The notes beneath the pieces are model-generated. The model worked only from the letters and a program-made list of their open reading frames with translations, had not been told where the DNA came from and made no database searches. A program made the translations under genes and the position numbers. Of a stretch of 64,000 nt of DNA, positions 16,243 through 45,752 are shown piece by piece; positions within the stretch are counted from its first letter, which is position 1, and each line of letters begins with the position of its first letter. The stretch is taken from NCBI RefSeq assembly GCF_054482525.1, contig NZ_CM137006.1; one strand, written 5' to 3'.

Positions 16243-16335
16243 AAATAAAAAAACCTGCTGGTGAGGCAGGTTCTTTGATTTACTACTTTCAGGCCTAACA
16301 CCACGGCCTGTGCAACATCGTGTTCCAACGAACGA
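16243..16335 (-). ncRNA. orzO: candidate OrzO antitoxin sRNA (antisense to the zorO 5' UTR region)
   Basis: A minus-strand intrinsic terminator (stem cctgcctcaccagcagg plus U-run ending near 16246) sits upstream of and divergent from zorO. This is the architecture described for zor-orz loci. The ends given are approximate. Confidence 0.35.
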
Positions 16336-16852: not shown

Positions 16853-16945
16853 AAAATAAAAGAACCTGCTGGTGAGGCAGGTTCTTTTATTTACTACTTT
16901 GATGTTAAGTTACTGATAGTGCAACATGGCATCTCAACGAACGAA
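16853..16945 (-). ncRNA. orzP: candidate OrzP antitoxin sRNA
   Basis: Counterpart of orzO in repeat unit 2. The terminator stem is conserved but the U-run is weaker. Confidence 0.3.
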
Positions 16946-35698: not shown

Positions 35699-35733
35699 TA
35701 CTCCCCCCCAGTACCTGATACTACCCCCCAGTA
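35699..35733. promoter_or_regulatory. two RcnR operator sites (TACT-C7-AGTA and TACT-AC6-AGTA) in the rcnA–rcnR divergent intergenic region
   Basis: tactcccccccagta and tactaccccccagta match the published TACT-G6-N-AGTA RcnR operator type on the opposite strand. Confidence 0.7.
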
Positions 35734-35781
35734 GATTAATAGTGCTATGATTTTTCATGTTCTTGTTAACCAGGTGTTGCC

Positions 35782-36054
35782 ATGTCTCATACCATCCGTG
35801 ATAAACAGAAACTGAAAGCGCGTGCCAGTAAGATTCAGGGCCAGGTCGTGGCGCTCAAGAAAATGCTCGACGAGCCGCACGAATGCGCTGCAGTTTTACA
35901 ACAGATTGCTGCTATCCGTGGCGCGGTAAACGGTCTGATGCGGGAAGTGATTAAAGGTCATCTGACGGAACACATCGTTCACCAGGGGGATGAGCTAAAA
36001 CGTGAAGAAGATCTGGATGTCGTTCTGAAGGTGCTGGATTCTTATATCAAATAA
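35782..36054 (+). CDS. rcnR: Ni/Co-responsive repressor (CsoR/RcnR family)
   Basis: 90 aa, [35 protein letters not shown]... Confidence 0.85.
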
Positions 36055-36142
36055 TTTATTAACGCTATTGTAAAACTGCCGTTTTTCCTCGTTTACAACG
36101 GGTGCGCTGGACATTACCATCCTCCTCTGCGATTTATCATCG

Positions 36143-36224
36143 CAACCAAACGACTCGGGGTGCCCTTCTGCGTGAAGGCTGAGAAATACCCGTATCACCT
36201 GATCTGGATAATGCCAGCGTAGGG
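36143..36224. repeat. attL-like 82-bp direct repeat: duplicated 5' part of the thiM TPP-riboswitch aptamer
   Basis: Identical to 44033..44114. It lies between rcnR and an integrase gene. Confidence 0.85.
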
Positions 36225-36307
36225 GGCCAAAATAGTCTTGAAAATTATGTGGTTGTATCTCTTTTTGACCATAAATCATGCTGTTAAGGTACAAAAAGGG
36301 GTCGTTT

Positions 36308-37615
36308 ATGAGGTCAAGAACTCTCCCATACACATTTCAGCGAAACGGTAATTACTATCTACAAATCCGGCTTTCGGATGGTCGGATATACAAAAAATCA
36401 CTTTTTACTGACAGTTATCGCGAAGCATCGGCGTTGATGATTGGCCTTACTCCGCACATTCCTTTCGTTAAATCACTCGCTACTCCGTTGCCGCAATTTA
36501 ATAAGTTTGTTTCAAACTTGATCGCTTCGTCACGTAACGTAATGATTCCGTTGCCACTCCCTCAGCAATTGAACAATATTTCTAAAGAAGTTTTGCAGCT
36601 TCAACCACCAGCCAAACCGGAAAAGGTACTAACACTTGCTGATGCGTGGGCTATGTACAAGGAGGAAAGAGGTCGAAATTGGACAAAATCGATCTCAATA
36701 GCAAATGAGCGTTATATGGAGGTATTGCTTGTTGTCTTGGGAAAAGAAACAGACGTAACGGCAATCACCAAACAAGATATTAAGCGAGTAATGGAAACTG
36801 TCGAAAACTTACCAAAGCGTGTAGTGCAACCGTATAGGTCAATGACTATTCAGCAACTAATCGAATGTGATGATGTGCTGCCAGAGGATTTAGTTGGTGC
36901 TGAGGCTGTACATAAGCACCTTAAAATCTACAAATCGTTATTCAAAACATTTCTGACTGAAAACAAAGATATTCTATCTAAGTCTCCGACTGATGGAATA
37001 GTAGCGGCACCATCCAAAGCTAGGTTTGGTGCATACAGTGCAGCAGAAATGAAAAAATTTGTAGGATGGGCACTAAAGCAGCCTGATGGATGGCAGAAGT
37101 GGATCACTTTGTTGTTGGCGTACACAGGAGCCAGAAGAGGTGAGATTGCTAAACTGGAGAAGTCGCAGATCAAATTTGATGAAGATAGCCAGCGGCACTA
37201 TCTTCTGATCGCGGAAAGAAGGCTGGGTAAAACTGAGAATGCTACAAGACAGGTAGTGATTCATCCCAAACTGATTGAGTGGGGGTTTCTGGATTTTGTT
37301 AACCGCCAATGGAAAGAGAAAATCTTTTCGGAAGTCTCAGGTCGAAATATGTCAAAGATAGGTAAAGTTCTTTCAGATGTTCGTGATCAGCTTGATATTC
37401 CTTATCTTGATGATTATGGGCAGCGGCGCTTGGTGCATAGTTTCCGGCATACTATGATTTCTACTTGTTTAGCTGGTTGGGTGAGTAATTTGGCGCATCT
37501 GCAACAGGTGGTAGGTCATGAAAAGAGTGGAGTAGGGATTACCCAGCGTTATCTGCACACATTCCCACTTTCCACCGTTTGTTATGTGATCGATGGTCTT
37601 TGTTGGGAGACTTAG
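36308..37615 (+). CDS. tyrosine-type site-specific integrase
   Basis: 435 aa from MRSRTL, using the start downstream of RBS aaaagggg; the alternative start is at 36278. The C-terminal catalytic region has R...HSFRHT...Y (VHSFRHTMIS, ITQRYLH) and sits next to an att repeat. Confidence 0.8.
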   Translation: MRSRTLPYTFQRNGNYYLQIRLSDGRIYKKSLFTDSYREASALMIGLTPHIPFVKSLATPLPQFNKFVSNLIASSRNVMIPLPLPQQLNNISKEVLQLQPPAKPEKVLTLADAWAMYKEERGRNWTKSISIANERYMEVLLVVLGKETDVTAITKQDIKRVMETVENLPKRVVQPYRSMTIQQLIECDDVLPEDLVGAEAVHKHLKIYKSLFKTFLTENKDILSKSPTDGIVAAPSKARFGAYSAAEMKKFVGWALKQPDGWQKWITLLLAYTGARRGEIAKLEKSQIKFDEDSQRHYLLIAERRLGKTENATRQVVIHPKLIEWGFLDFVNRQWKEKIFSEVSGRNMSKIGKVLSDVRDQLDIPYLDDYGQRRLVHSFRHTMISTCLAGWVSNLAHLQQVVGHEKSGVGITQRYLHTFPLSTVCYVIDGLCWET

Positions 37616-37743
37616 TTATTCGTGTATCCTTCTTAGTGTATAACCAGCTAATAATTTGTAGATTTTTATTGTCTGAGATCAAAAATTTTCACAACTAATT
37701 TACAATAATAACTTAAGATGAATTTAGGCTTAGTGAGTCTTCT

Positions 37744-38469
37744 ATGGTTAAAAATTTAGGCAAAAAATACAAGTATGGCGATCAACCGATAAGAGCTATT
37801 ACCATACAGATAATTGCTAATCAGTTTGGTGGGGCTGCAACGGCTAAGCAGGTAGATGATTATCTTAGAAAGCTATTTCCATCTTATAAAGATAATACTT
37901 GGCTCAATTTAATTGCTAATACAGTTAATTGTAAGCGGAGCTACTGGAGTTTCAACAAAACTGCCCGACGAACTGATGATGTAACTCATCGGCATCATAA
38001 GTATGACCGATTGTTCAAGCGTGGAAATATTTTTGAAATCTATCAACCATCTGTGCACGGTATTTGGGAATTATACCAGGATTTAGAAGGGATGTGGCGT
38101 TATCGTCAAGTAAAATCGGTTTTCGAAGAAGCTGTTGAGACGGCTGCAAAATTATCTTCAGTGGAACGAAAGCAAATTTTAGCGACAGAAAGTAAAATCC
38201 CGGAACTAATCGAAGTAACAACACGAGTTTATAAACGAAGCCCATATGTAGTTGCTGAAGTTCTTTTGAGAGCAAATGGAAAATGTCAATATTGTAAGCG
38301 AGATGCTCCTTTTCTAAAGGAAGATGGTACTCCATTTCTAGAAGTTCATCATATTGAGTGGCTTTCAAAGGGGGGGGAGGACTCTGTGGAAAATGCTATT
38401 GCATTATGTCCTAATTGCCATAGACAAGCCCATTATGGCGATCTGACATTACTACCTGTTAATAAATAG
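37744..38469 (+). CDS. McrA-like HNH endonuclease (putative type IV modification-dependent restriction enzyme)
   Basis: The C-terminal motif CQYCKRDAPFLKEDGTPFLEVHHIEWLSKGGEDSVENAIALCPNCHRQAHYGD is a close pattern match to the McrA HNH region. The N-terminal roughly 150 aa are unrelated to any family I recognise. Confidence 0.55.
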   Translation: MVKNLGKKYKYGDQPIRAITIQIIANQFGGAATAKQVDDYLRKLFPSYKDNTWLNLIANTVNCKRSYWSFNKTARRTDDVTHRHHKYDRLFKRGNIFEIYQPSVHGIWELYQDLEGMWRYRQVKSVFEEAVETAAKLSSVERKQILATESKIPELIEVTTRVYKRSPYVVAEVLLRANGKCQYCKRDAPFLKEDGTPFLEVHHIEWLSKGGEDSVENAIALCPNCHRQAHYGDLTLLPVNK

Positions 38470-38546
38470 GCTTGATGAAAGTTCTATTTCTATATTTTTC
38501 AATATACAAATTTCCCCAAAAACGGCGTGAATATCACGCCGATCAA

Positions 38547-38894
38547 TCATACTTCAGAACACATACTCAATGTGTAAACAGCCATCTCCCCATCGGGATT
38601 AGAAGGGCGTAATACAAATATCGGTATACTGCCATTGTCAATGTATGTGGCTGCAACCCCTCCGTCAGGTGTAGCATACATCTTTGCGATGCTTTTTTGA
38701 CCTACAAAATCAAGTCTCCAAGTTTTACCGCCAAGATTTATGGTCATTTTTTTATCTTGTATATCAAAAGTTGAATCTACAGAAACTTTCTGACTTCCCG
38801 AGTCAATATGACCTTCCTGTATTGCTTTACAGGAAAAGGTTGTGGCGTGGCCCATCACTGGAATTAACAAAGCGGCAAATACTAGTTTTTTCAT
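38547..38894 (-). CDS. small secreted protein (signal peptide MKKLVFAALLIPVMGHA)
   Basis: 115 aa from MKKL. RBS aagggagacaa. Convergent with the HNH gene. Confidence 0.5.
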   Translation of the reverse strand: MKKLVFAALLIPVMGHATTFSCKAIQEGHIDSGSQKVSVDSTFDIQDKKMTINLGGKTWRLDFVGQKSIAKMYATPDGGVAATYIDNGSIPIFVLRPSNPDGEMAVYTLSMCSEV

Positions 38895-39004
38895 TTGTCT
38901 CCCTTGGTGTGTCAAATGGATGGTGATGCTAATAATACATGATTGATTCAAAATGTCACGATTAGTGCGTGGTTAATTGGTGCGTCAAATTGCATCTTTG
39001 TGCC

Positions 39005-39469
39005 ATGCGAAAGAATCTGAGATACCTTTTTGGACAACGAGTAAAAGAGTTCCGTATAGCTATTGGCTTAAGCCAAGAGGCCTTTGCAGATCGGTGTGGT
39101 TTTGCACGTAGTTATATGAGTCGAATTGAGCGTGGTTGCTCTAATGCATCTCTTGATGCAATTGAGGTTCTGGCTGACGCTTTGCGTATTGAGCCTTGGC
39201 AGTTACTGGCTTCTGATTCAAGGAAACCTGATGATCAGGAGGTACTTGTTCCTTATGCTGCAGATGGGTCGTGTTTTCATCCAGGATTGGCAAGTACTCG
39301 CGATGGTTCGTTTAGAGTAGGGGAAAAATCAGCCCAGAAACGTTTCAGTTCGTTCAATGAAGCTCTCGAATACCTTCGTGGAATGGAAACCGCGAAGTGG
39401 CGTAGGCCTAATGCTAGTGGTAATTGGGGAATTGTATCTGCGGTTAAATGGGATCGACTGAATCAATAA
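39005..39469 (+). CDS. XRE-family HTH transcriptional regulator with a C-terminal extension
   Basis: HTH reads LRYLFGQRVKEFRIAIGLSQEAFADRCGFARSYMSRIERG. 154 aa. Confidence 0.65.
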   Translation: MRKNLRYLFGQRVKEFRIAIGLSQEAFADRCGFARSYMSRIERGCSNASLDAIEVLADALRIEPWQLLASDSRKPDDQEVLVPYAADGSCFHPGLASTRDGSFRVGEKSAQKRFSSFNEALEYLRGMETAKWRRPNASGNWGIVSAVKWDRLNQ

Positions 39470-39635
39470 GATATCAGTAATTTTCGGGCCACTCCACAAG
39501 GCAATAAGTGGCTTAGTGGTGATTATCGAAGGGGAATACAAGCGAGCACCTAGGCACCATTGCAAGAACCGCTCAACGCTGAGATCAGCAAGCCCCGATT
39601 TTTGCCGACCGTCCCTGTCAAATATCAAGGAGGCA

Positions 39636-40187
39636 TTACGCCACCTGCTCTTTCTTGATACGTTGCACCGTCTGCGTGCTGACACTGAAATCTTTTGCTA
39701 CGCTCCGAATTGAGCCACCATTCGCGAGAGCGGCAGCAATTCCCGCTCGATCAATTGCTTTTCCATTACCACGTTTTGCTATACGTCCAGCGGCCTTGGC
39801 TGCGGCGATCCCTTCACGTTGACGCTCAAGCATCATTTCACGTTCCATTTGTGCCACTGCTGCAAGAACTGTGAGCATCATATTCCCTGCGGGAGAGTTC
39901 TTTCCTGTCTTAAAGTCTTCTTTATGGAAATGCACAGACACGCCGCGCTTTGTTAATTGCTCTACAGTTGCCAGAAGGTCGGCTGTATTACGACAAAGGC
40001 GATCAATACTATGGACGTGTAACACGTCACCCTCCCGCACATAGTTCATCATTGCCTCAAACTGTGGGCGCTGAGTGTTCTTGCCTGACGCTTTATCTTC
40101 AAAGACTTTATCAAGAGTTACTCCTGCTAATTGACGGTCTGTGTTTTGTTGCACAGTCGATACCCTAATGTATCCAATATTAGCCAT
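39636..40187 (-). CDS. small serine recombinase (resolvase/invertase family)
   Basis: N-terminal catalytic motif IGYIRVSTVQQNTDRQ with the active-site Ser. The C-terminal HTH reads SIRSVAKDFSVSTQTVQRI. 183 aa. Confidence 0.8.
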   Translation of the reverse strand: MANIGYIRVSTVQQNTDRQLAGVTLDKVFEDKASGKNTQRPQFEAMMNYVREGDVLHVHSIDRLCRNTADLLATVEQLTKRGVSVHFHKEDFKTGKNSPAGNMMLTVLAAVAQMEREMMLERQREGIAAAKAAGRIAKRGNGKAIDRAGIAAALANGGSIRSVAKDFSVSTQTVQRIKKEQVA

Positions 40188-40219
40188 CTTCTTTTTTCTT
40201 CTGTATTGATTTGTGTGTA

Positions 40220-40325
40220 GTGATTATTGAACGTGTTGATTAGGTGTGTAAAGTACTTTTTTCACTACGAAATTCGAAGTTTTTTAGTGTGGTGATTTAG
40301 CCTGCCTTATCACTACACTTCTTGC
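40220..40325. promoter_or_regulatory. candidate res/recombination site: clustered inverted copies of GTGTAGTGAT(T/A)A just upstream of the serine recombinase gene
   Basis: Motifs found at about 40226 (gtgtagtgatta), 40262 (tcactacg, inverted), 40283 (agtgtggtgatt) and 40309 (atcactacac, inverted). The arrangement resembles multi-subsite res sites. Confidence 0.3.
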
Positions 40326-40571
40326 ATGAGAATCATGTAGTTACATTTTGGTAAAATTAGCAAGCTATTAAATTGTGTGTTTATTTTGAAAAAATAATTT
40401 TTGTTGCATTAAAGAAAACTTGTTCGACAAATAATAGGTTGATTTTTGATCAATAATTTCTGATAGTGCTCTGTAAGCCGCATTACACAAGGCGCAGCGA
40501 AAGTGATGTAAAAGTGAAGAAAGCTAACATTGCACTTTTAAACTACTTTTCATTGAATTTTTTAGTATGGA

Positions 40572-40644
40572 ATTACACAGGAATAAGTTAGGGATATTCT
40601 ATGATTTACACAGGGAATATAGGGGGATTATGGTATTACACAGA
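40572..40644. repeat. three spaced (a/t)ttacacag motifs, 33 and 31 bp apart, upstream of the iterons
   Basis: attacacagg at 40572, tttacacagg at 40605 and attacacaga at 40636. Possible protein-binding array (DnaA- or IHF-like sites or Rep auxiliary sites). Confidence 0.35.
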
Positions 40645-40673
40645 GTGAGTGCTATGTGATGATTGGTAGTAAC

Positions 40674-40783
40674 GGTAGGTCACTGTGAACTAGGGGGGTA
40701 GGTCACTGTGAACTAGGGGGGTAGGTCACTGTGAGCTAGGGGGTAGGTCACTGTGAACTAGGGGGTAGGTCACTGTGAACTAC
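40674..40783. repeat. five tandem 22/23-bp iterons (TAGGTCACTGTGAACTAGGGGG), putative replication origin
   Basis: Copies start at 40676, 40699, 40722, 40744 and 40766. They are directly followed by an AT-rich tract of about 90 bp (40784..40870) made of ataataagactat-type repeats, a candidate DNA-unwinding element. There are no spacers, so this is not CRISPR. Confidence 0.85.
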
Positions 40784-41884
40784 AATAAGACTATAATAAG
40801 ACTATTAATAAAACTATATTAGATTATTAATTAGATCATAATAATAATATTCTTTATATCTATATATATATGATCTTTTGCCTTCCGGCGTTAGCTTCAC
40901 TCTCTGGCAAGCAGCCTTACTCCGCTACCTTTCGGGCTACGTTGGCTGGCCCGTTCCGCTCACACCGAAAGCAAAGCGTTACTTTCTTCGTGTAACTTCG
41001 TTGGCGGTAACGCCCACGAAGGAATACTATTGCGCTGTGCGCAGTAAGAGTAATCACCTAACCAATCATCTGATTGCTTACGTGTTAACTCTCTCTAACT
41101 CTTAATTACCCTCCTACATTTAATAACTCTCGTTATTCTCTGTAGTTGTGTAATTACTCGAAGAGAGAGCGGCTAAAGCTCAATTACACTCTGCTTTCCT
41201 CGTGTAATTTCACTAAGCCTCAATACAATTTCACTTCCTACATTCTGTAGTCGTGTAATTGTTTTCGGTGGAAAAGCCAGAGGCGACACCGAAAGAGAAT
41301 TCTGATCTTATTAATCTTATCTATCTTAGTTATCTTACTTACTTTATCTACTTTATTATTAATAATAGCTTTATAAGCTCTCTGTGTAGCTCTCTGACGC
41401 AAGAAACAGAGTTCAGGAAGGGAATCACCTTAGAAAAGTGTTCTTTGCGTCATAATGTGTTTTATGAAGGATTCAGAGGTGTTTCATAACAGAGATGTAT
41501 AGAGGATACTTTAGGTAATTAAAAATAAGGGGTCTAAATGCTTCTCTAACAGCATTAAGCAGGGTAGAGAATGGAAACCGCTTTGCCTACATATATAAAC
41601 TCACTACAGGGCTTTACAGAGCGTTTTATAAAGTGACTCTCTGTTTTATATCTACCATCACCTTTTCATATACCTAACAAATACAAAATAAGCCCCTTAA
41701 ATAAGCCTCTGGCGAGCTAAACAGCCATTACATAAGAGAATGTATTGCTTTTATCAAAACCTCGTTAGAACGCGTTTTAGAGCGTTTTAGCGGATAATGA
41801 AGAATAGCACTACACAGGAGAGCACGAATTGCTAAGAAAAAATGTAACTACATGAAAAAGATCAGATTTTTTGTGAAAAGGTAT

Positions 41885-41913
41885 TGACAAACGTCTCTTT
41901 CTGTGCAATAATA
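41885..41913 (+). promoter_or_regulatory. sigma70-like promoter (TTGACA-17-AATAAT) for the small-gene operon
   Basis: Consensus -35, 17-bp spacer and an A/T-rich -10, located about 125 bp upstream of the first ORF. Confidence 0.4.
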
Positions 41914-42038
41914 GGTATTAGAGGGACAGGAATAGATTCTTATCCTCTAAATAATTAAACCAATGCACCGCACTTTGAAGCCCAAGGCTTGTAAGGTGTG
42001 TTTTTTCTTTTAACCAAATAGAATAAGGAGGCTAATTA

Positions 42039-42227
42039 ATGAAATATTTTACTCCACAGGATGTAGTAGAAGCCTGGAAACGTGGTGAGATCAACCGCTT
42101 TAAAGTAAGGATGTATAGAAACACCGCTCGCCGTTGTGGTTATCCAGAGCGTGAAAAATGTTTTGACGATGCACTAAAAATTATTGATGAACTGCGTAAA
42201 GCTGAGAAAGAAGCAGAGAAAAAATAA
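42039..42227 (+). CDS. hypothetical 62-aa basic protein
   Basis: Strong RBS aaggagg. It is the first gene of a tightly packed 4-gene operon. Confidence 0.45.
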   Translation: MKYFTPQDVVEAWKRGEINRFKVRMYRNTARRCGYPEREKCFDDALKIIDELRKAEKEAEKK

Positions 42228-42249
42228 TAGACAAGAGAAGGAGAAAACT

Positions 42250-42417
42250 ATGAGCGAAACTAAGAAACCAATTCCGCGCACTTACCTACACGTTGACCCT
42301 GAAATCTTCAAGGTTTTATTTGCTGAAGCCAAGAAAAGGCAAATTATGGTCAGTGATTTGATGTTAGAAATCATTACTGAAGCAGCAGAGAACATCAAAC
42401 AAAAAAAGGGTAAGTGA
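42250..42417 (+). CDS. 55-aa putative ribbon-helix-helix (CopG/Arc-like) DNA-binding protein
   Basis: RBS aggag. Its size and the N-terminal beta-strand (PRTYLHVDPEIF) followed by two helices look RHH-like. This is an inference from sequence pattern only. Confidence 0.35.
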   Translation: MSETKKPIPRTYLHVDPEIFKVLFAEAKKRQIMVSDLMLEIITEAAENIKQKKGK

Positions 42418-42468
42418 TCCTCATTCACTTTAGTAGCGCATTAAGCGTGATTTATAAGGAGATTTTTA

Positions 42469-43158
42469 ATGATTAATCAACTAACTTTTACAAAACACTA
42501 TGACACGTTTGATAATGTATCAAAGATTTATTCTGATAAATTCCCTCAAGGAAAAGATTTAGATCTATTACATATTGTGCTTTATTTTCGATTCCTTAGT
42601 TATCAGGAAAACAACCTTAATTGTTATGAAAGTCACGAAACATTAGCTAAGATTTTTAAGTCTTCAGCGTCAACAATTAAACGTAAGATAAACGATCTTA
42701 AAGAGATGGGATTATTAGAAACATCCCCACATCCTGATCCGTATATTTCATCTTTGATTTACAATGCTCTCCCTCTCACAGATGCACATATTACTCCCCC
42801 AGGAGAATCATCACTCTCTGATCTTTCTGAGGCAGAAGAAGCACAGGAACAACCTAAAGGCCATAAACAGCCTTCTTTTGATGTTCTTGATGATTGGGAT
42901 ACGCCTTTACCCTGGGAGACGGAAGAAACACCTGTTTCATCAAGTGAAAAAGTAGCTAATGATAATGAGGAGGATGTGTTAGAGAATTTTGCCTCTCTTA
43001 TCATCCAGGAGAAACACACAAGAACAGGAGGAGCATCATTTATTGAGTTTGCAAATTCACTAGCTTGTAGATACGGGCTAAAACGACCAAATGGTATTGA
43101 GGCATATTTTTCTAAGAATTACCCAAATATATACGATGACTTTGATATTCCATTTTAA
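42469..43158 (+). CDS. 229-aa winged-helix protein with an acidic disordered C-terminal half, candidate replication initiator
   Basis: HTH-like segment HETLAKIFKSSASTIKRKINDLKEMGLLE. Strong RBS taaggag. It is encoded downstream of the iteron array. No recognised family without a search. Confidence 0.4.
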   Translation: MINQLTFTKHYDTFDNVSKIYSDKFPQGKDLDLLHIVLYFRFLSYQENNLNCYESHETLAKIFKSSASTIKRKINDLKEMGLLETSPHPDPYISSLIYNALPLTDAHITPPGESSLSDLSEAEEAQEQPKGHKQPSFDVLDDWDTPLPWETEETPVSSSEKVANDNEEDVLENFASLIIQEKHTRTGGASFIEFANSLACRYGLKRPNGIEAYFSKNYPNIYDDFDIPF

Positions 43159-43169
43159 TAAGGAGGGTT

Positions 43170-43415
43170 ATGATTCAATATTTAGTAAAAAATCAAGTAG
43201 ACAGAATTCAGTGTAATGACACAGGAAAACGCATCTACGAGACACTTGTTTACCTCTATAAAGGAAAGCCAACACCGCTAAAATATAGCGATGTGTTACA
43301 TCGAGCAGGTTGCTCTGAGTCAGGTTTAAAATTCTGGCTGAAACAGCTATCAAATTTCGGTGTTATTGAAATGAAAGAGCTGTCTTTTTCTACATTCAAC
43401 CTCAAGAAGTTATAG
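43170..43415 (+). CDS. 81-aa putative winged-helix DNA-binding protein
   Basis: RBS aaggaggg. The segment DVLHRAGCSESGLKFWLKQLSNFGVIE resembles a wHTH. Confidence 0.4.
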   Translation: MIQYLVKNQVDRIQCNDTGKRIYETLVYLYKGKPTPLKYSDVLHRAGCSESGLKFWLKQLSNFGVIEMKELSFSTFNLKKL

Positions 43416-43580
43416 AAAATAGAATTCATCTATTCCACGCTCTAATTCTATTTCTCTGTTTAATATAAAAGGAAAACATTATTATGGTAATAGCTATGTG
43501 GTGGTTGTTGTTTTTTATGCTCGTAGAAACATATGCAAGTAAGTCTGGAAAACAAAAATAATATATTGATGATTTGTTTT

Positions 43581-43820
43581 TTATAACTTCGTGGTGTCAA
43601 GTCCAGCAGCTTTGAGTCGCTCGGTAAGATTTCTCATTTTGCTGAACTCTGTACCAAAGCTGGCTTTAAGTCCTACACCTTCACAAAACTCTTTTGCCGT
43701 AACCTTTTTCAGATGGTCAGCATATTTGATCATCTGGAGGTGCATTTCCATCGTTTGGCTATTTCGTGGTGCGCTGCTAATGGCTTGCTTAATGTTCTCG
43801 TAGATCTGGGTTTCTGTCAT
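43581..43820 (-). CDS. 79-aa hypothetical protein, convergent with the operon, at the island right end
   Basis: RBS ggtgag. No recognised family. Confidence 0.4.
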   Translation of the reverse strand: MTETQIYENIKQAISSAPRNSQTMEMHLQMIKYADHLKKVTAKEFCEGVGLKASFGTEFSKMRNLTERLKAAGLDTTKL

Positions 43821-44032
43821 TTTTTATCTCACCTATCAAATTTAGATAAATAATATAAATTAGCAAATTAAGATAATCAATAGTTTTTATCATCTGAATG
43901 ATAGATGTTAAATGTTTCTTTTTCATTTCTGATATGGGGTACAAAATGGGGTACACAGAGAAGAAGCAATTAATGGAGGCGAGCTTGCATCTGCAAGCCA
44001 CTTCCCCTAAGCTGGCACAAAATATAGAGATT

Positions 44033-44114
44033 CAACCAAACGACTCGGGGTGCCCTTCTGCGTGAAGGCTGAGAAATACCCGTATCACCTGATCTGGATA
44101 ATGCCAGCGTAGGG
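44033..44114. repeat. attR-like 82-bp direct repeat (5' part of the native thiM riboswitch)
   Basis: Identical to 36143..36224. It is contiguous with the remainder of the thiM leader. Confidence 0.85.
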
Positions 44115-44166
44115 AAGTCACGGACCACCAGGTCATTGCTTCTTCACGTTATGGCAGGAGCAAACT
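44033..44166 (+). ncRNA. TPP (thi-box) riboswitch in the thiM 5' leader
   Basis: The sequence ...ACGACTCGGGGTGCCCTTCTGCGTGAAGGCTGAGAAATACCCGTATCACCTGATCTGGATAATGCCAGCGTAGGGAAGTCACGGACCACCAGGTCATTGCTTCTTCACGTTATGGCAGGAGCAAACTATG matches the well-studied E. coli thiM riboswitch, both aptamer and expression platform. Confidence 0.9.
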
Positions 44167-44955
44167 ATGCAAGTCGACCTGCTGAGTTCCGCGCAATCTG
44201 CGCACGCGTTACACCTTTTTCACCAACATTCCCCTCTTGTGCACTGCATGACCAACGATGTGGTGCAAACCTTTACTGCCAATACCTTGCTGGCGCTCGG
44301 TGCATCGCCAGCGATGGTTATCGAAACCGAAGAGGCCAGTCAGTTTGCGGCTATCGCCAGTGCGTTGCTGATTAACGTTGGCACGCTGACGCAGCCACGC
44401 GCACAGGCGATGCGTGCCGCCGTTGAACAGGCAAAACGCTCTCAAACACCCTGGATGCTTGATCCAGTAGCGGTGGGTGCACTCGATTATCGCCGCCGTT
44501 TTTGTCTGGAACTTCTGTCTCATAAGCCAACCGCCATACGTGGTAATGCTTCGGAAATCATGGCATTAGCTGGCGTTGCTAATGGTGGACGGGGAGTGGA
44601 TACCACTGACGCCGCAGCTAACGCGATACCCGCTGCACAAACACTGGCACGGGAAACTGGCGCAATCGTCGTGGTCACTGGCGAGATGGATTATGTTACC
44701 GATGGACATCGTATCATTGGTATTCACGGTGGCGATCCGTTAATGACCAAAGTGGTAGGAACTGGCTGTGCATTATCGGCGGTTGTCGCTGCCTGTTGTG
44801 CGTTACCAGGCGATATGCTGGAAAATGTCGCATCTGCCTGTCACTGGATGAAACAAGCCGGAGAACGCGCAGTCGCCAGAAGCGAGGGGCCAGGCAGTTT
44901 TGTTCCACATTTCCTTGATGCGCTCTGGCAATTGACGCAGGAGGTGCAGGCATGA
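44167..44955 (+). CDS. thiM: hydroxyethylthiazole kinase
   Basis: 262 aa, [30 protein letters not shown]... Confidence 0.9.
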
Positions 44956-45752
44956 AACGAATTAACGCTCTGACGATTGCCGGTACTGATCCGAGTGGTG
45001 GTGCGGGGATTCAGGCCGATCTTAAAACCTTCTCGGCACTTGGCGCTTATGGTTGCTCAGTGATTACTGCACTGGTGGCGCAAAATACCCGTGGCGTACA
45101 GTCGGTGTATCGCATTGAGCCTGATTTTGTCGCCGCCCAGCTCGATTCGGTGTTCAGCGATGTGCGAATCGACACCACTAAAATCGGTATGTTGGCGGAA
45201 ACCGATATTGTTGAAGCGGTGGCAGAACGGTTGCAACGTTATCAGATCCAAAACGTGGTACTCGACACCGTTATGCTGGCAAAAAGCGGCGACCCGCTGC
45301 TTTCACCTTCGGCGGTTGCTACGCTGCGCAGTCGATTATTGCCACAGGTTTCATTAATAACGCCAAACTTGCCCGAAGCTGCTGCCTTGCTCGACGCGCC
45401 ACACGCGCGCACCGAACAGGAAATGCTGGAACAAGGGCGATCGCTGTTGGCGATGGGCTGTGGCGCAGTGCTAATGAAAGGTGGTCATCTGGATGATGAA
45501 CAAAGCCCGGACTGGCTGTTTACCCGCGAGGGTGAACAACGGTTTACGGCACCGCGCATTATGACCAAAAACACCCACGGCACTGGTTGTACACTCTCTG
45601 CGGCGTTGGCTGCACTACGCCCGCGCCATACAAACTGGGCAGACACCGTCCAGGAGGCAAAAAGCTGGCTTTCATCGGCGTTAGCCCAGGCCGACACGCT
45701 GGAAGTTGGTCACGGTATTGGTCCGGTTCACCACTTCCACGCCTGGTGGTGA
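44952..45752 (+). CDS. thiD: hydroxymethylpyrimidine/phosphomethylpyrimidine kinase
   Basis: 266 aa. Overlaps thiM by 4 nt. PfkB-like fold motifs. Confidence 0.9.

Follow-up and report, generated by a model that had tools for sequence, protein, structure and literature searches.

Integrative elements target conserved RNA genes, such as those for tRNA, tmRNA, 6S RNA (ssrS), and 4.5S RNA (ffs), and carry a replacement fragment of the target in attP (Mageeney et al. 2020, PMC7192596). A case of integration at ffs has been described separately (PMC12540744), and prophage-associated SAM-IV and thiamine pyrophosphate (TPP) elements have been reported in Mycolicibacterium (PMC8190616). Here we describe an island in a 64,000-nt stretch of contig NZ_CM137006.1 (NCBI RefSeq assembly GCF_054482525.1), hereafter called the window, whose sequence is 100 per cent identical to E. 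coli SCU-102. The island lies between rcnR and thiM, and at its left end a copy of the TPP riboswitch aptamer precedes the tyrosine integrase gene, int. We consider it likely that this segment is an attL junction, left by a small integrative island with an integrase specific for the TPP-riboswitch aptamer in the leader of the thiMD operon.

The closest described cases are found in catalogues. Two TIGER/Islander entries, ‘Eco824.15.TPP_RNA’ and ‘Kox2.11.TPP_RNA’, appear in the supplement of PMC7192596, and Hochhauser et al. (2023, PMC10121019) list an ‘rcnR-thiM’ defence locus in E. coli 789 of 7,956 bp and eight genes, with a type IV restriction gene and the mobile-element type ‘None’. Together these catalogue islands span 8–15 kb in E. 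coli and Klebsiella, with the target annotated as a TPP riboswitch, though the TIGER islands may lie at thiM or instead at thiC or thiB. The E. coli 789 region matches the island described here and has the same int at 99.8 per cent identity. All of these cases are list entries only, given without att anatomy, an island-borne aptamer or promoter, or an orphan aptamer. Our full-text literature searches likewise returned catalogue entries only, and no paper on integration at thiM or a TPP riboswitch, on the anatomy of such a junction, or on a regulatory role for it.

The thiM island shares several features with elements that target RNA genes: a tyrosine integrase gene next to one att site, a repeat that duplicates part of the target, a target rebuilt as a recombinant of host and element, a displaced non-functional fragment at the other junction, and what may be tandem arrays. 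It differs from them in that its target is a cis-regulatory mRNA leader and not a stand-alone RNA gene. It also replaces the 5′ part of that target and therefore must bring a promoter and leader of its own, and the displaced thiM fragment still has the host promoter and is directed into int. Phage 21 and e14 insert in icd and duplicate the part that they displace. As in those elements, the identity block is far longer than the crossover region and appears to be carried to keep the target functional; unlike them, the thiM island restores a 5′ regulatory RNA and its promoter rather than the 3′ end of a coding sequence.

The island and its two aptamer copies

A repeat search of the window identified an 82-nt direct repeat whose copies, at 36143–36224 (attL) and 44033–44114 (attR) on the + strand, are 100 per cent identical and 7890 nt apart, which is far above chance expectation. 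The uninterrupted rcnR–thiM intergenic region of K-12 MG1655 aligns base for base with the left flank, one repeat, and the right flank, and the insertion into the thiM leader was therefore precise. The first-pass annotation of this DNA had described the repeat as the first 82 nt of the thiM leader; its length was right, but in published numbering (PMC5499598) it covers leader nt +17 to +98. Between the copies lies an island of 7.8 kb (36225–44032) with a GC content of 0.35–0.48, versus 0.51–0.54 in the flanks. The int gene (36308–37615, + strand; 435 aa, WP_001257774.1, Pfam PF00589 Phage_integrase, PHROG 1) adjoins one end, starting 84 nt after the repeat as first annotated, and with direct repeats at both ends the region has the layout of an integrative element. 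At least 80 per cent of this particular island is present in sixty-four E. coli genomes.

We searched both repeat regions with the Rfam model of the TPP riboswitch (RF00059, gathering score 54.3 bits). The right copy (44036–44132) scores 71.2 bits and is complete, with all helices. It forms part of an entire thiM riboswitch (44036–44166, + strand) in which the aptamer on the island side is joined to the host P1 3′ strand, the platform of anti-Shine-Dalgarno (anti-SD) and SD sequences, and the ribosome-binding site (RBS). The left copy (36146–36241, + strand) also exceeds the gathering score, at 61.3 bits. It retains the P1 5′ strand, helices P2, P3, P4, and P5, and all junctions, including the conserved CUGAGA and ACCUGAUCUGGAUAAUGCCAGCGUAGGG and both sensor arms (P2/P3 and P4/P5), and is identical to the native thiM aptamer over 82 nt.

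After ...GCGUAGGG, the left copy departs from the native leader: island sequence takes the place of the native P1 3′ strand, AAGUCACG, and of the whole SD-sequestering platform, so that native GGGAAGUCACG reads GGGGGCCAAAAUAG. In the model alignment the substitute GGCC gives three of five pairs in the P1 closing helix, with two of five non-standard, and alignment to K-12 confirms that the native platform is gone. Compared with the characterized thiM riboswitch of E. coli (RF00059, PMC5499598), the attL copy is thus identical in P2–P5, the junctions, and the P1 5′ strand, and has the same promoter and transcription start site (TSS), but it has lost three parts, the P1 3′ strand, the anti-SD/SD platform, and the rut region located in thiM codons 20–34, that together provide the translational and Rho-dependent outputs. 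A truncated aptamer without expression platform between the native thiM promoter and int was the central observation of the first-pass annotation, and the Rfam scores, the repeat, and the promoter scan described below all bear it out. As a candidate for a re-formed P1 we considered the minimum free energy (MFE) fold, which pairs GACU with AGUC at 36233–36236, and rejected it: AGUC is missing from all relatives and is a chance 4-mer.

The NCBI Prokaryotic Genome Annotation Pipeline (PGAP) labels the attL aptamer ‘TPP riboswitch’ in NZ_CP051753.1, NZ_CP034784.1, NZ_CP119402.1, and NZ_CP122801.1, as in the window. Automated surveys built on PGAP or Rfam calls would list such orphan aptamers as riboswitch-controlled integrases. 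The striking position of an aptamer ahead of an integrase gene, which recombination geometry appears to explain, is a caveat for automated calls of riboswitch regulons.

Origin of the copies and conservation of the target

The two copies in the window are identical, and their origin was examined in three E. coli strains with divergent islands at the same site (L022–L024, where L022 is ECZP248). In all three, the attL aptamer is of the E. coli type, with leader TCGCAACCAAAC and P3 CCCTTCTGCGTGAAGG. In the attR aptamer both the leader, ATTCAATCTTCAT, and the P3 stems (CCCCATCAATGATGGG, CCCTTCTTTGTGAAGG, and CCCTTCTTAAATGAAGG) are foreign, although the stems are still base-paired. These attR copies are nonetheless annotated and scored as TPP riboswitches, the target having been rebuilt from a fragment borne by the element. 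The same pattern holds across genera, where attL aptamers vary with the host up to the P5 loop (e.g. GGATTATACC at a Serratia locus and GGGGGATGCC in Lelliottia) and the adjoining island sequence is constant. Host variation up to the P5 loop next to a constant island side therefore points to a crossover within the last ≤11 nt of the aptamer, CCAGCGTAGGG, which runs from the P5 3′ strand to the P4 3′ strand.

These comparisons establish, at the level of sequence, that the attL aptamer is essentially host DNA, except perhaps its last ≤11 nt, and that the aptamer before thiMD came with the island. About 70 nt of the island-carried aptamer would then be unneeded for recombination itself. By analogy with elements at RNA genes, the simplest reason for this extra sequence would be the classical strategy of an attP fragment that keeps the target functional, applied here to the 5′ side of a riboswitch. 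The thiMD riboswitch of ECZP248 (L022 31221–31317), like those of L023 and L024, is a natural chimera in which a foreign aptamer, with another P3 and leader, is joined to the E. coli platform. In carriers of the island, the promoter of thiMD would be foreign, as is the aptamer now joined to the host platform, and this arrangement could alter the regulation of thiamine salvage.

We next examined how far the target is shared by relatives of the integrase. There are 539 homologues across Enterobacterales at E < 1e-10, and those among the matches listed have 77–98 per cent identity and come from Escherichia, Cronobacter, Enterobacter, Citrobacter, Klebsiella, Kluyvera, and Serratia. A survey of one genome per species, with loci found through the integrase, yielded nineteen loci. 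In thirteen of these an aptamer at or above the gathering score lies on the int strand and ends ~68 nt before int (Rfam); recognizable sub-threshold aptamers in four more (L004, L014, L016, L017) bring the total to seventeen of nineteen. Loci with the aptamer target span at least twelve genera. At a decayed locus, L021, what remains of int is followed immediately by a full riboswitch and thiM–thiD. The junction always reads ...GCCAGCGTAGG(G), followed by conserved island sequence, and in a more distant integrase subfamily (L014, L017) it lies 2 nt earlier, so that part of P4 is lost. Within E. coli, an integrase of this family occurs in 221 of 5426 complete genomes (~4 per cent) and is in every case chromosomal, and the four loci examined, this window included, all lie between rcnR and thiM. 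A riboswitch aptamer is thus a conserved integration target for the whole integrase family in Enterobacterales, much as tRNA genes are for others.

Some loci have more than host DNA on the left of the aptamer. At L005 (1–130) and at L009, L011, and L018 (~2700–2860), another right-end block of the island type, followed by the aptamer, precedes int, with no native host DNA; these four loci may be tandem arrays of different islands. PAAR-like open reading frames (ORFs) lie just upstream in L006, L011, L012, and L018.

If the island restores its target from the 5′ side, its right end should supply a promoter for thiMD. The first-pass annotation had noted that thiMD keeps an intact riboswitch while island DNA, with arm-type repeats and a palindrome, occupies the place of its former promoter, and each of these elements is present: the riboswitch by its Rfam score and alignment to K-12, the palindrome GCTTGC-ATCT-GCAAGC at 43983–43998, and two direct GGGGTACA motifs at 43936–43955 (+ strand). 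The motifs are putative arm-type integrase sites from their sequence and from comparison of attR ends; relatives have three. What that annotation missed is the target-restoring geometry, by which an aptamer and a thiM-like promoter block for thiMD both arrive with the island.

This block of ~45 bp (43983–44028, + strand) is common to eight right ends, namely those of this window and L022–L024 and the island-type flanks of L005, L009, L011, and L018. It consists of the palindrome GCTTGC-N4-GCAAGC followed by CACTTCCCCTAAGCTGGC, and sequence farther upstream diverges. In the window it contains the hexamers TTGCAT (−35, 43985–43990) and TAAGCT (−10, 44008–44013) separated by 17 nt, and this −10 lies ~30 nt before GACUC, matching the geometry of the E. 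coli promoter. An alternative −10, TATAGA (44023–44028), lies 13 nt before GACUC, as in Atlantibacter and Pantoea, whose native thiM promoters (TTGCTT-17-TATCCT / TATTCT) the block resembles in form and position. Because every carrier examined has an intact thiM and thiD, and because the last gene of the island faces away from thiM, we infer that the block acts as a replacement promoter for thiMD.

Put together, the data fit the following scheme. Left of the crossover, the attP of the island would hold its own thiM-like promoter block, leader, and aptamer; on the right would come integrase-binding sequence and then int. Strand exchange in CCAGCGTAGGG would join the island promoter and aptamer to the P1 3′ strand, platform, and thiMD of the host, giving a complete riboswitch-controlled operon, and would strand the host promoter and aptamer at attL, minus the P1 3′ strand and platform, 84 nt before int. 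The stranded aptamer, which can probably still fold, would be a by-product of this geometry. This is ordinary target-restoring integration at an unusual target, and we have no evidence for a new regulatory mechanism.

Transcription and translation of int

The attL junction retains both the native thiM promoter and the leader from nt +1 to nt +98, and this region is identical to the upstream sequence of K-12. A promoter scan placed its −35 hexamer, TTTACA, at 36092–36097 and its −10 hexamer, TACCAT, at 36115–36120, with a 17-nt spacer. Bastet et al. (2017, PMC5499598) number the thiM RBS G142 and the AUG U152. Applied to the thiM ATG at 44167, this numbering puts the attL TSS at 36127, which is 7 nt past the −10, 16 nt before the repeat, and 181 nt upstream of the int ATG. 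The promoter (36092–36127 up to the TSS, + strand) now points into the island. A sequence scan found no terminator-like site in 35700–36700, and a consensus scan with a threshold of nine of twelve matches found no + strand promoter-like site in 36225–36307. The proposal of the first-pass annotation that int transcription comes from the host thiM promoter is compatible with this sequence, and read-through from that promoter into int is plausible; transcripts starting there would probably run through the stranded aptamer.

A dedicated int promoter was rejected as a candidate, with none of at least nine of twelve matches on the + strand of 36225–36307; the sole site reported lies on the − strand. 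This site (TGGTCA-16-CATAAT, 36271–36244) points out of the left end of the island towards rcnR and runs antisense to the aptamer.

Translation of int would instead be gated by structure that the island itself encodes. We used RNAalifold on eighteen family loci, which recovered P2–P5 together with helices internal to the island. Among the latter is a hairpin at 36245–36311 (+ strand) around the int SD (AAGGGG) and AUG, on which single-sequence folds agree. In its helices 6–8, 90–98 per cent of cells are paired across the eighteen loci, with three compensatory pairs in the apical helix 8, and the aptamer has no part in it. The arm-type-like motif AGGTACAAAAAGG at 36287–36299 and its inverted partner both lie inside the hairpin, and the motif overlaps the int SD. 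The hairpin, as modelled, could limit int translation, or it could merely reflect inverted integrase-binding sites. It is partly made of inverted copies of the arm-type-like motif GGTACAAAAAG.

Two further candidate structures were tried and dropped. Long-range pairing between the aptamer and the int start consists of three invariant pairs only and shows no covariation. The palindrome after the junction, GGCCGAAATTCGGCC, was considered as a terminator or antiterminator, but it is without a U-tract, and in this window, L013, and L020 it is degenerate. It shows G-C to A-U changes in relatives, yet as a palindrome at the DNA level it may just as well be a protein-binding site, and it was rejected as a general RNA platform.

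One refinement of target-restoring integration assigns the thiM promoters a direct role in int expression, with no ligand sensing involved. The integrated int would be transcribed mainly from the host thiM promoter and the circular form from the thiM-like block of the island, and int output would be set by promoter strength, integrase binding at core and arm sites, and the hairpin over the translation initiation region. This idea fits with a native promoter whose TSS remains 181 nt upstream of the int ATG, with the path from there to int, which lacks terminator-like sites and, in 36225–36307, + strand promoter-like sites, with the co-directional layout common to all family members, and with the arm-type-like motif that overlaps the int SD. 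However, scanning by consensus is a crude method, and many integrase promoters are weak or need an activator; at the corresponding place relatives show TTGACT, a good −35-like hexamer, though the −10 that goes with it is poor; and an untranslated, structured leader of 181 nt with a sequestered translation initiation region invites Rho termination. We regard the refinement as possible, with the balance tilted slightly against it.

Other elements also place int under control sequences that depend on the integration state. In ICEclc a promoter formed on the circular form drives intB13, and lambda uses sib retroregulation. As in these systems, the DNA flanking int differs between the integrated and excised states, with an att site separating int from control DNA. 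Unlike them, both states here put a thiM-type promoter and a TPP aptamer upstream of int, so there is no obvious state switch.

A second alternative is exaptation, in which the orphan aptamer binds TPP and forms, with the downstream island sequence, a thiamine-responsive leader for int that couples excision and integration to thiamine. The first-pass annotation had proposed a thiamine response of int through an aptamer-only structure, and several findings bring this alternative into play and weigh against our view of the aptamer as a by-product. The pocket and both sensor arms are intact, with a score above the Rfam threshold, and every ligand-contacting region is kept. In the attL transcript the canonical aptamer fold can be imposed at a predicted cost of +5.3 kcal/mol, and in the native leader at +6.5 to +7.8 kcal/mol; the cost to the orphan is thus comparable to, and no higher than, the native one, and by these models the orphan might bind TPP. 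The aptamer precedes int in every family member and stands upstream of it in the excised form too, so that selection on it is not assignable to restoration of thiMD alone. With no sigma-70-like + strand promoter between the repeat and int, and none of its own detected for int, the gene may depend on transcription through the aptamer, started at the host thiM promoter in the integrated state and at the island block in the circle. A platform-less thiM transcriptional fusion of six codons rose with TPP, and mRNA stabilization by the ligand was suggested (PMC5499598); by such a route TPP might have a modest effect even where no platform exists. The promoter that we assign to the right-end block is also open to doubt, since it has only seven of twelve consensus matches and no + strand hit in the promoter scan, and its role is proposed from position and conservation.

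The evidence on the other side is stronger. The P1 3′ strand is lost, its GGCC substitute gives three of five pairs, and the AGUC of the MFE fold is missing in relatives. There is no platform, and in constrained folding the int RBS has the same accessibility with the aptamer enforced as without (0.24 vs 0.21 free), whereas that of the native thiM RBS falls from 0.45 free to 0.29. In these models the aptamer can probably fold, but its folding is not coupled to the int RBS. The int SD and AUG lie in the conserved hairpin, without the aptamer, and the only contact between aptamer and int comprises the three pairs that show no covariation. The palindrome after the junction, which is able to compete with P4, is degenerate here and in L013 and L020. 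At L014 and L017, a junction 2 nt earlier cuts P4, so that junction position follows recombination and not aptamer integrity. In the native system, TPP control of thiM mRNA needs thiM codons 20–34 for a Rho-dependent step, and transcriptional fusions of up to twenty codons were unrepressed (PMC5499598). Integration geometry, finally, fully explains why the aptamer comes before int.

Exaptation is thus improbable. That the aptamer before int, whether the host copy at attL or the island copy in the circle, is a working thiamine sensor exploited by the island is in our judgement very unlikely; so is the corollary, by which TPP would change int mRNA stability or leader folding and integration and excision would track thiamine status. 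Were it true, a riboswitch aptamer would have been recruited to control a recombinase, and the movement of a defence island would be tied to thiamine. Under target-restoring integration, no thiamine response of int is expected, because the stranded aptamer has no expression platform. We infer that TPP control of int is absent, and hold thiamine control in any form to be unlikely. A last reading, that the repeat is no att site but arose when the thiM leader was duplicated, by chance or by recombination, beside an unrelated integrase gene, has the bare presence of the duplication in its favour and nothing more, and is refuted by the exact empty site in K-12, the same junction in seventeen loci of many genera, divergent islands of the same backbone at rcnR–thiM in three other E. 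coli strains, and the different origins of the attL and attR aptamers.

Gene content and neighbouring features

The left flank of the island is rcnR (35782–36054, RefSeq annotation), and the right flank is formed by thiM (44167–44955) and thiD (44952–45752), both intact and on the + strand. Directly after int comes an HNH/type IV restriction-like gene (37744–38469; PADLOC mREase_IV, 1.3e-23), followed by a hypothetical gene, a helix-turn-helix (HTH) gene, and a serine recombinase gene (39636–40187, − strand). A gene-free stretch of 1.85 kb (40188–42038) separates these from small ORFs and a gene with a weak match to replication initiators (42469–43158). The last island gene, which encodes an HTH_73 protein (43581–43820, − strand), is the one that faces away from thiM.

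The three divergent E. coli islands, of ~11 to 13.4 kb, have the same backbone and other cargo after int. Their cargo slot, directly after int, spans 22213–23940 in L022, 19444–23655 in L023, and 19640–22837 in L024. It holds an AIPR gene, a SIR2 gene with a HigB/ImmA module, or a gene for a TIR-domain protein, where the window has its HNH/type IV restriction-like gene. Variable defence-like cargo after int on a shared backbone therefore makes the thiM riboswitch a small defence-island hotspot, and the rcnR–thiM site one with a defined int/attB pair that is usable for engineering.

Phage-satellite hallmarks were defined as packaging or capsid-remodelling genes, a primase-helicase replication module, and an AlpA/Stl-type regulator. 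Pfam and PHROG scans of ten island proteins matched int, the HNH and HTH proteins, the serine recombinase, and, weakly, the replication initiator; this set does not make up a satellite, and the scans turned up no packaging or capsid genes. We rejected classing the island with phage satellites or with plasmid derivatives, searches of phage and plasmid DNA having given short partial matches only.

Within the gene-free stretch, at 40671–40787, lie five tandem iterons of 22–23 bp (GGGGGTAGGTCACTGTGAACTA), upstream of the replication-initiator-like ORF. From its sequence, this stretch is probably a replication origin, in which case the island would be a replicating element after excision. A comparable gene-poor stretch is present in relatives. 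In addition, a 242-nt segment that covers small island ORFs (42238–42479) matches the virulent 147-kb Escherichia phages muut and inny at 99 per cent identity, which hints that DNA has recently passed between lytic phages and the island.

Elsewhere in the window, two OrzO-P antitoxin RNA genes of the zor-orz type I toxin-antitoxin system lie on the − strand at 16247–16322 and 16858–16931 (91.9 and 90.2 bits).

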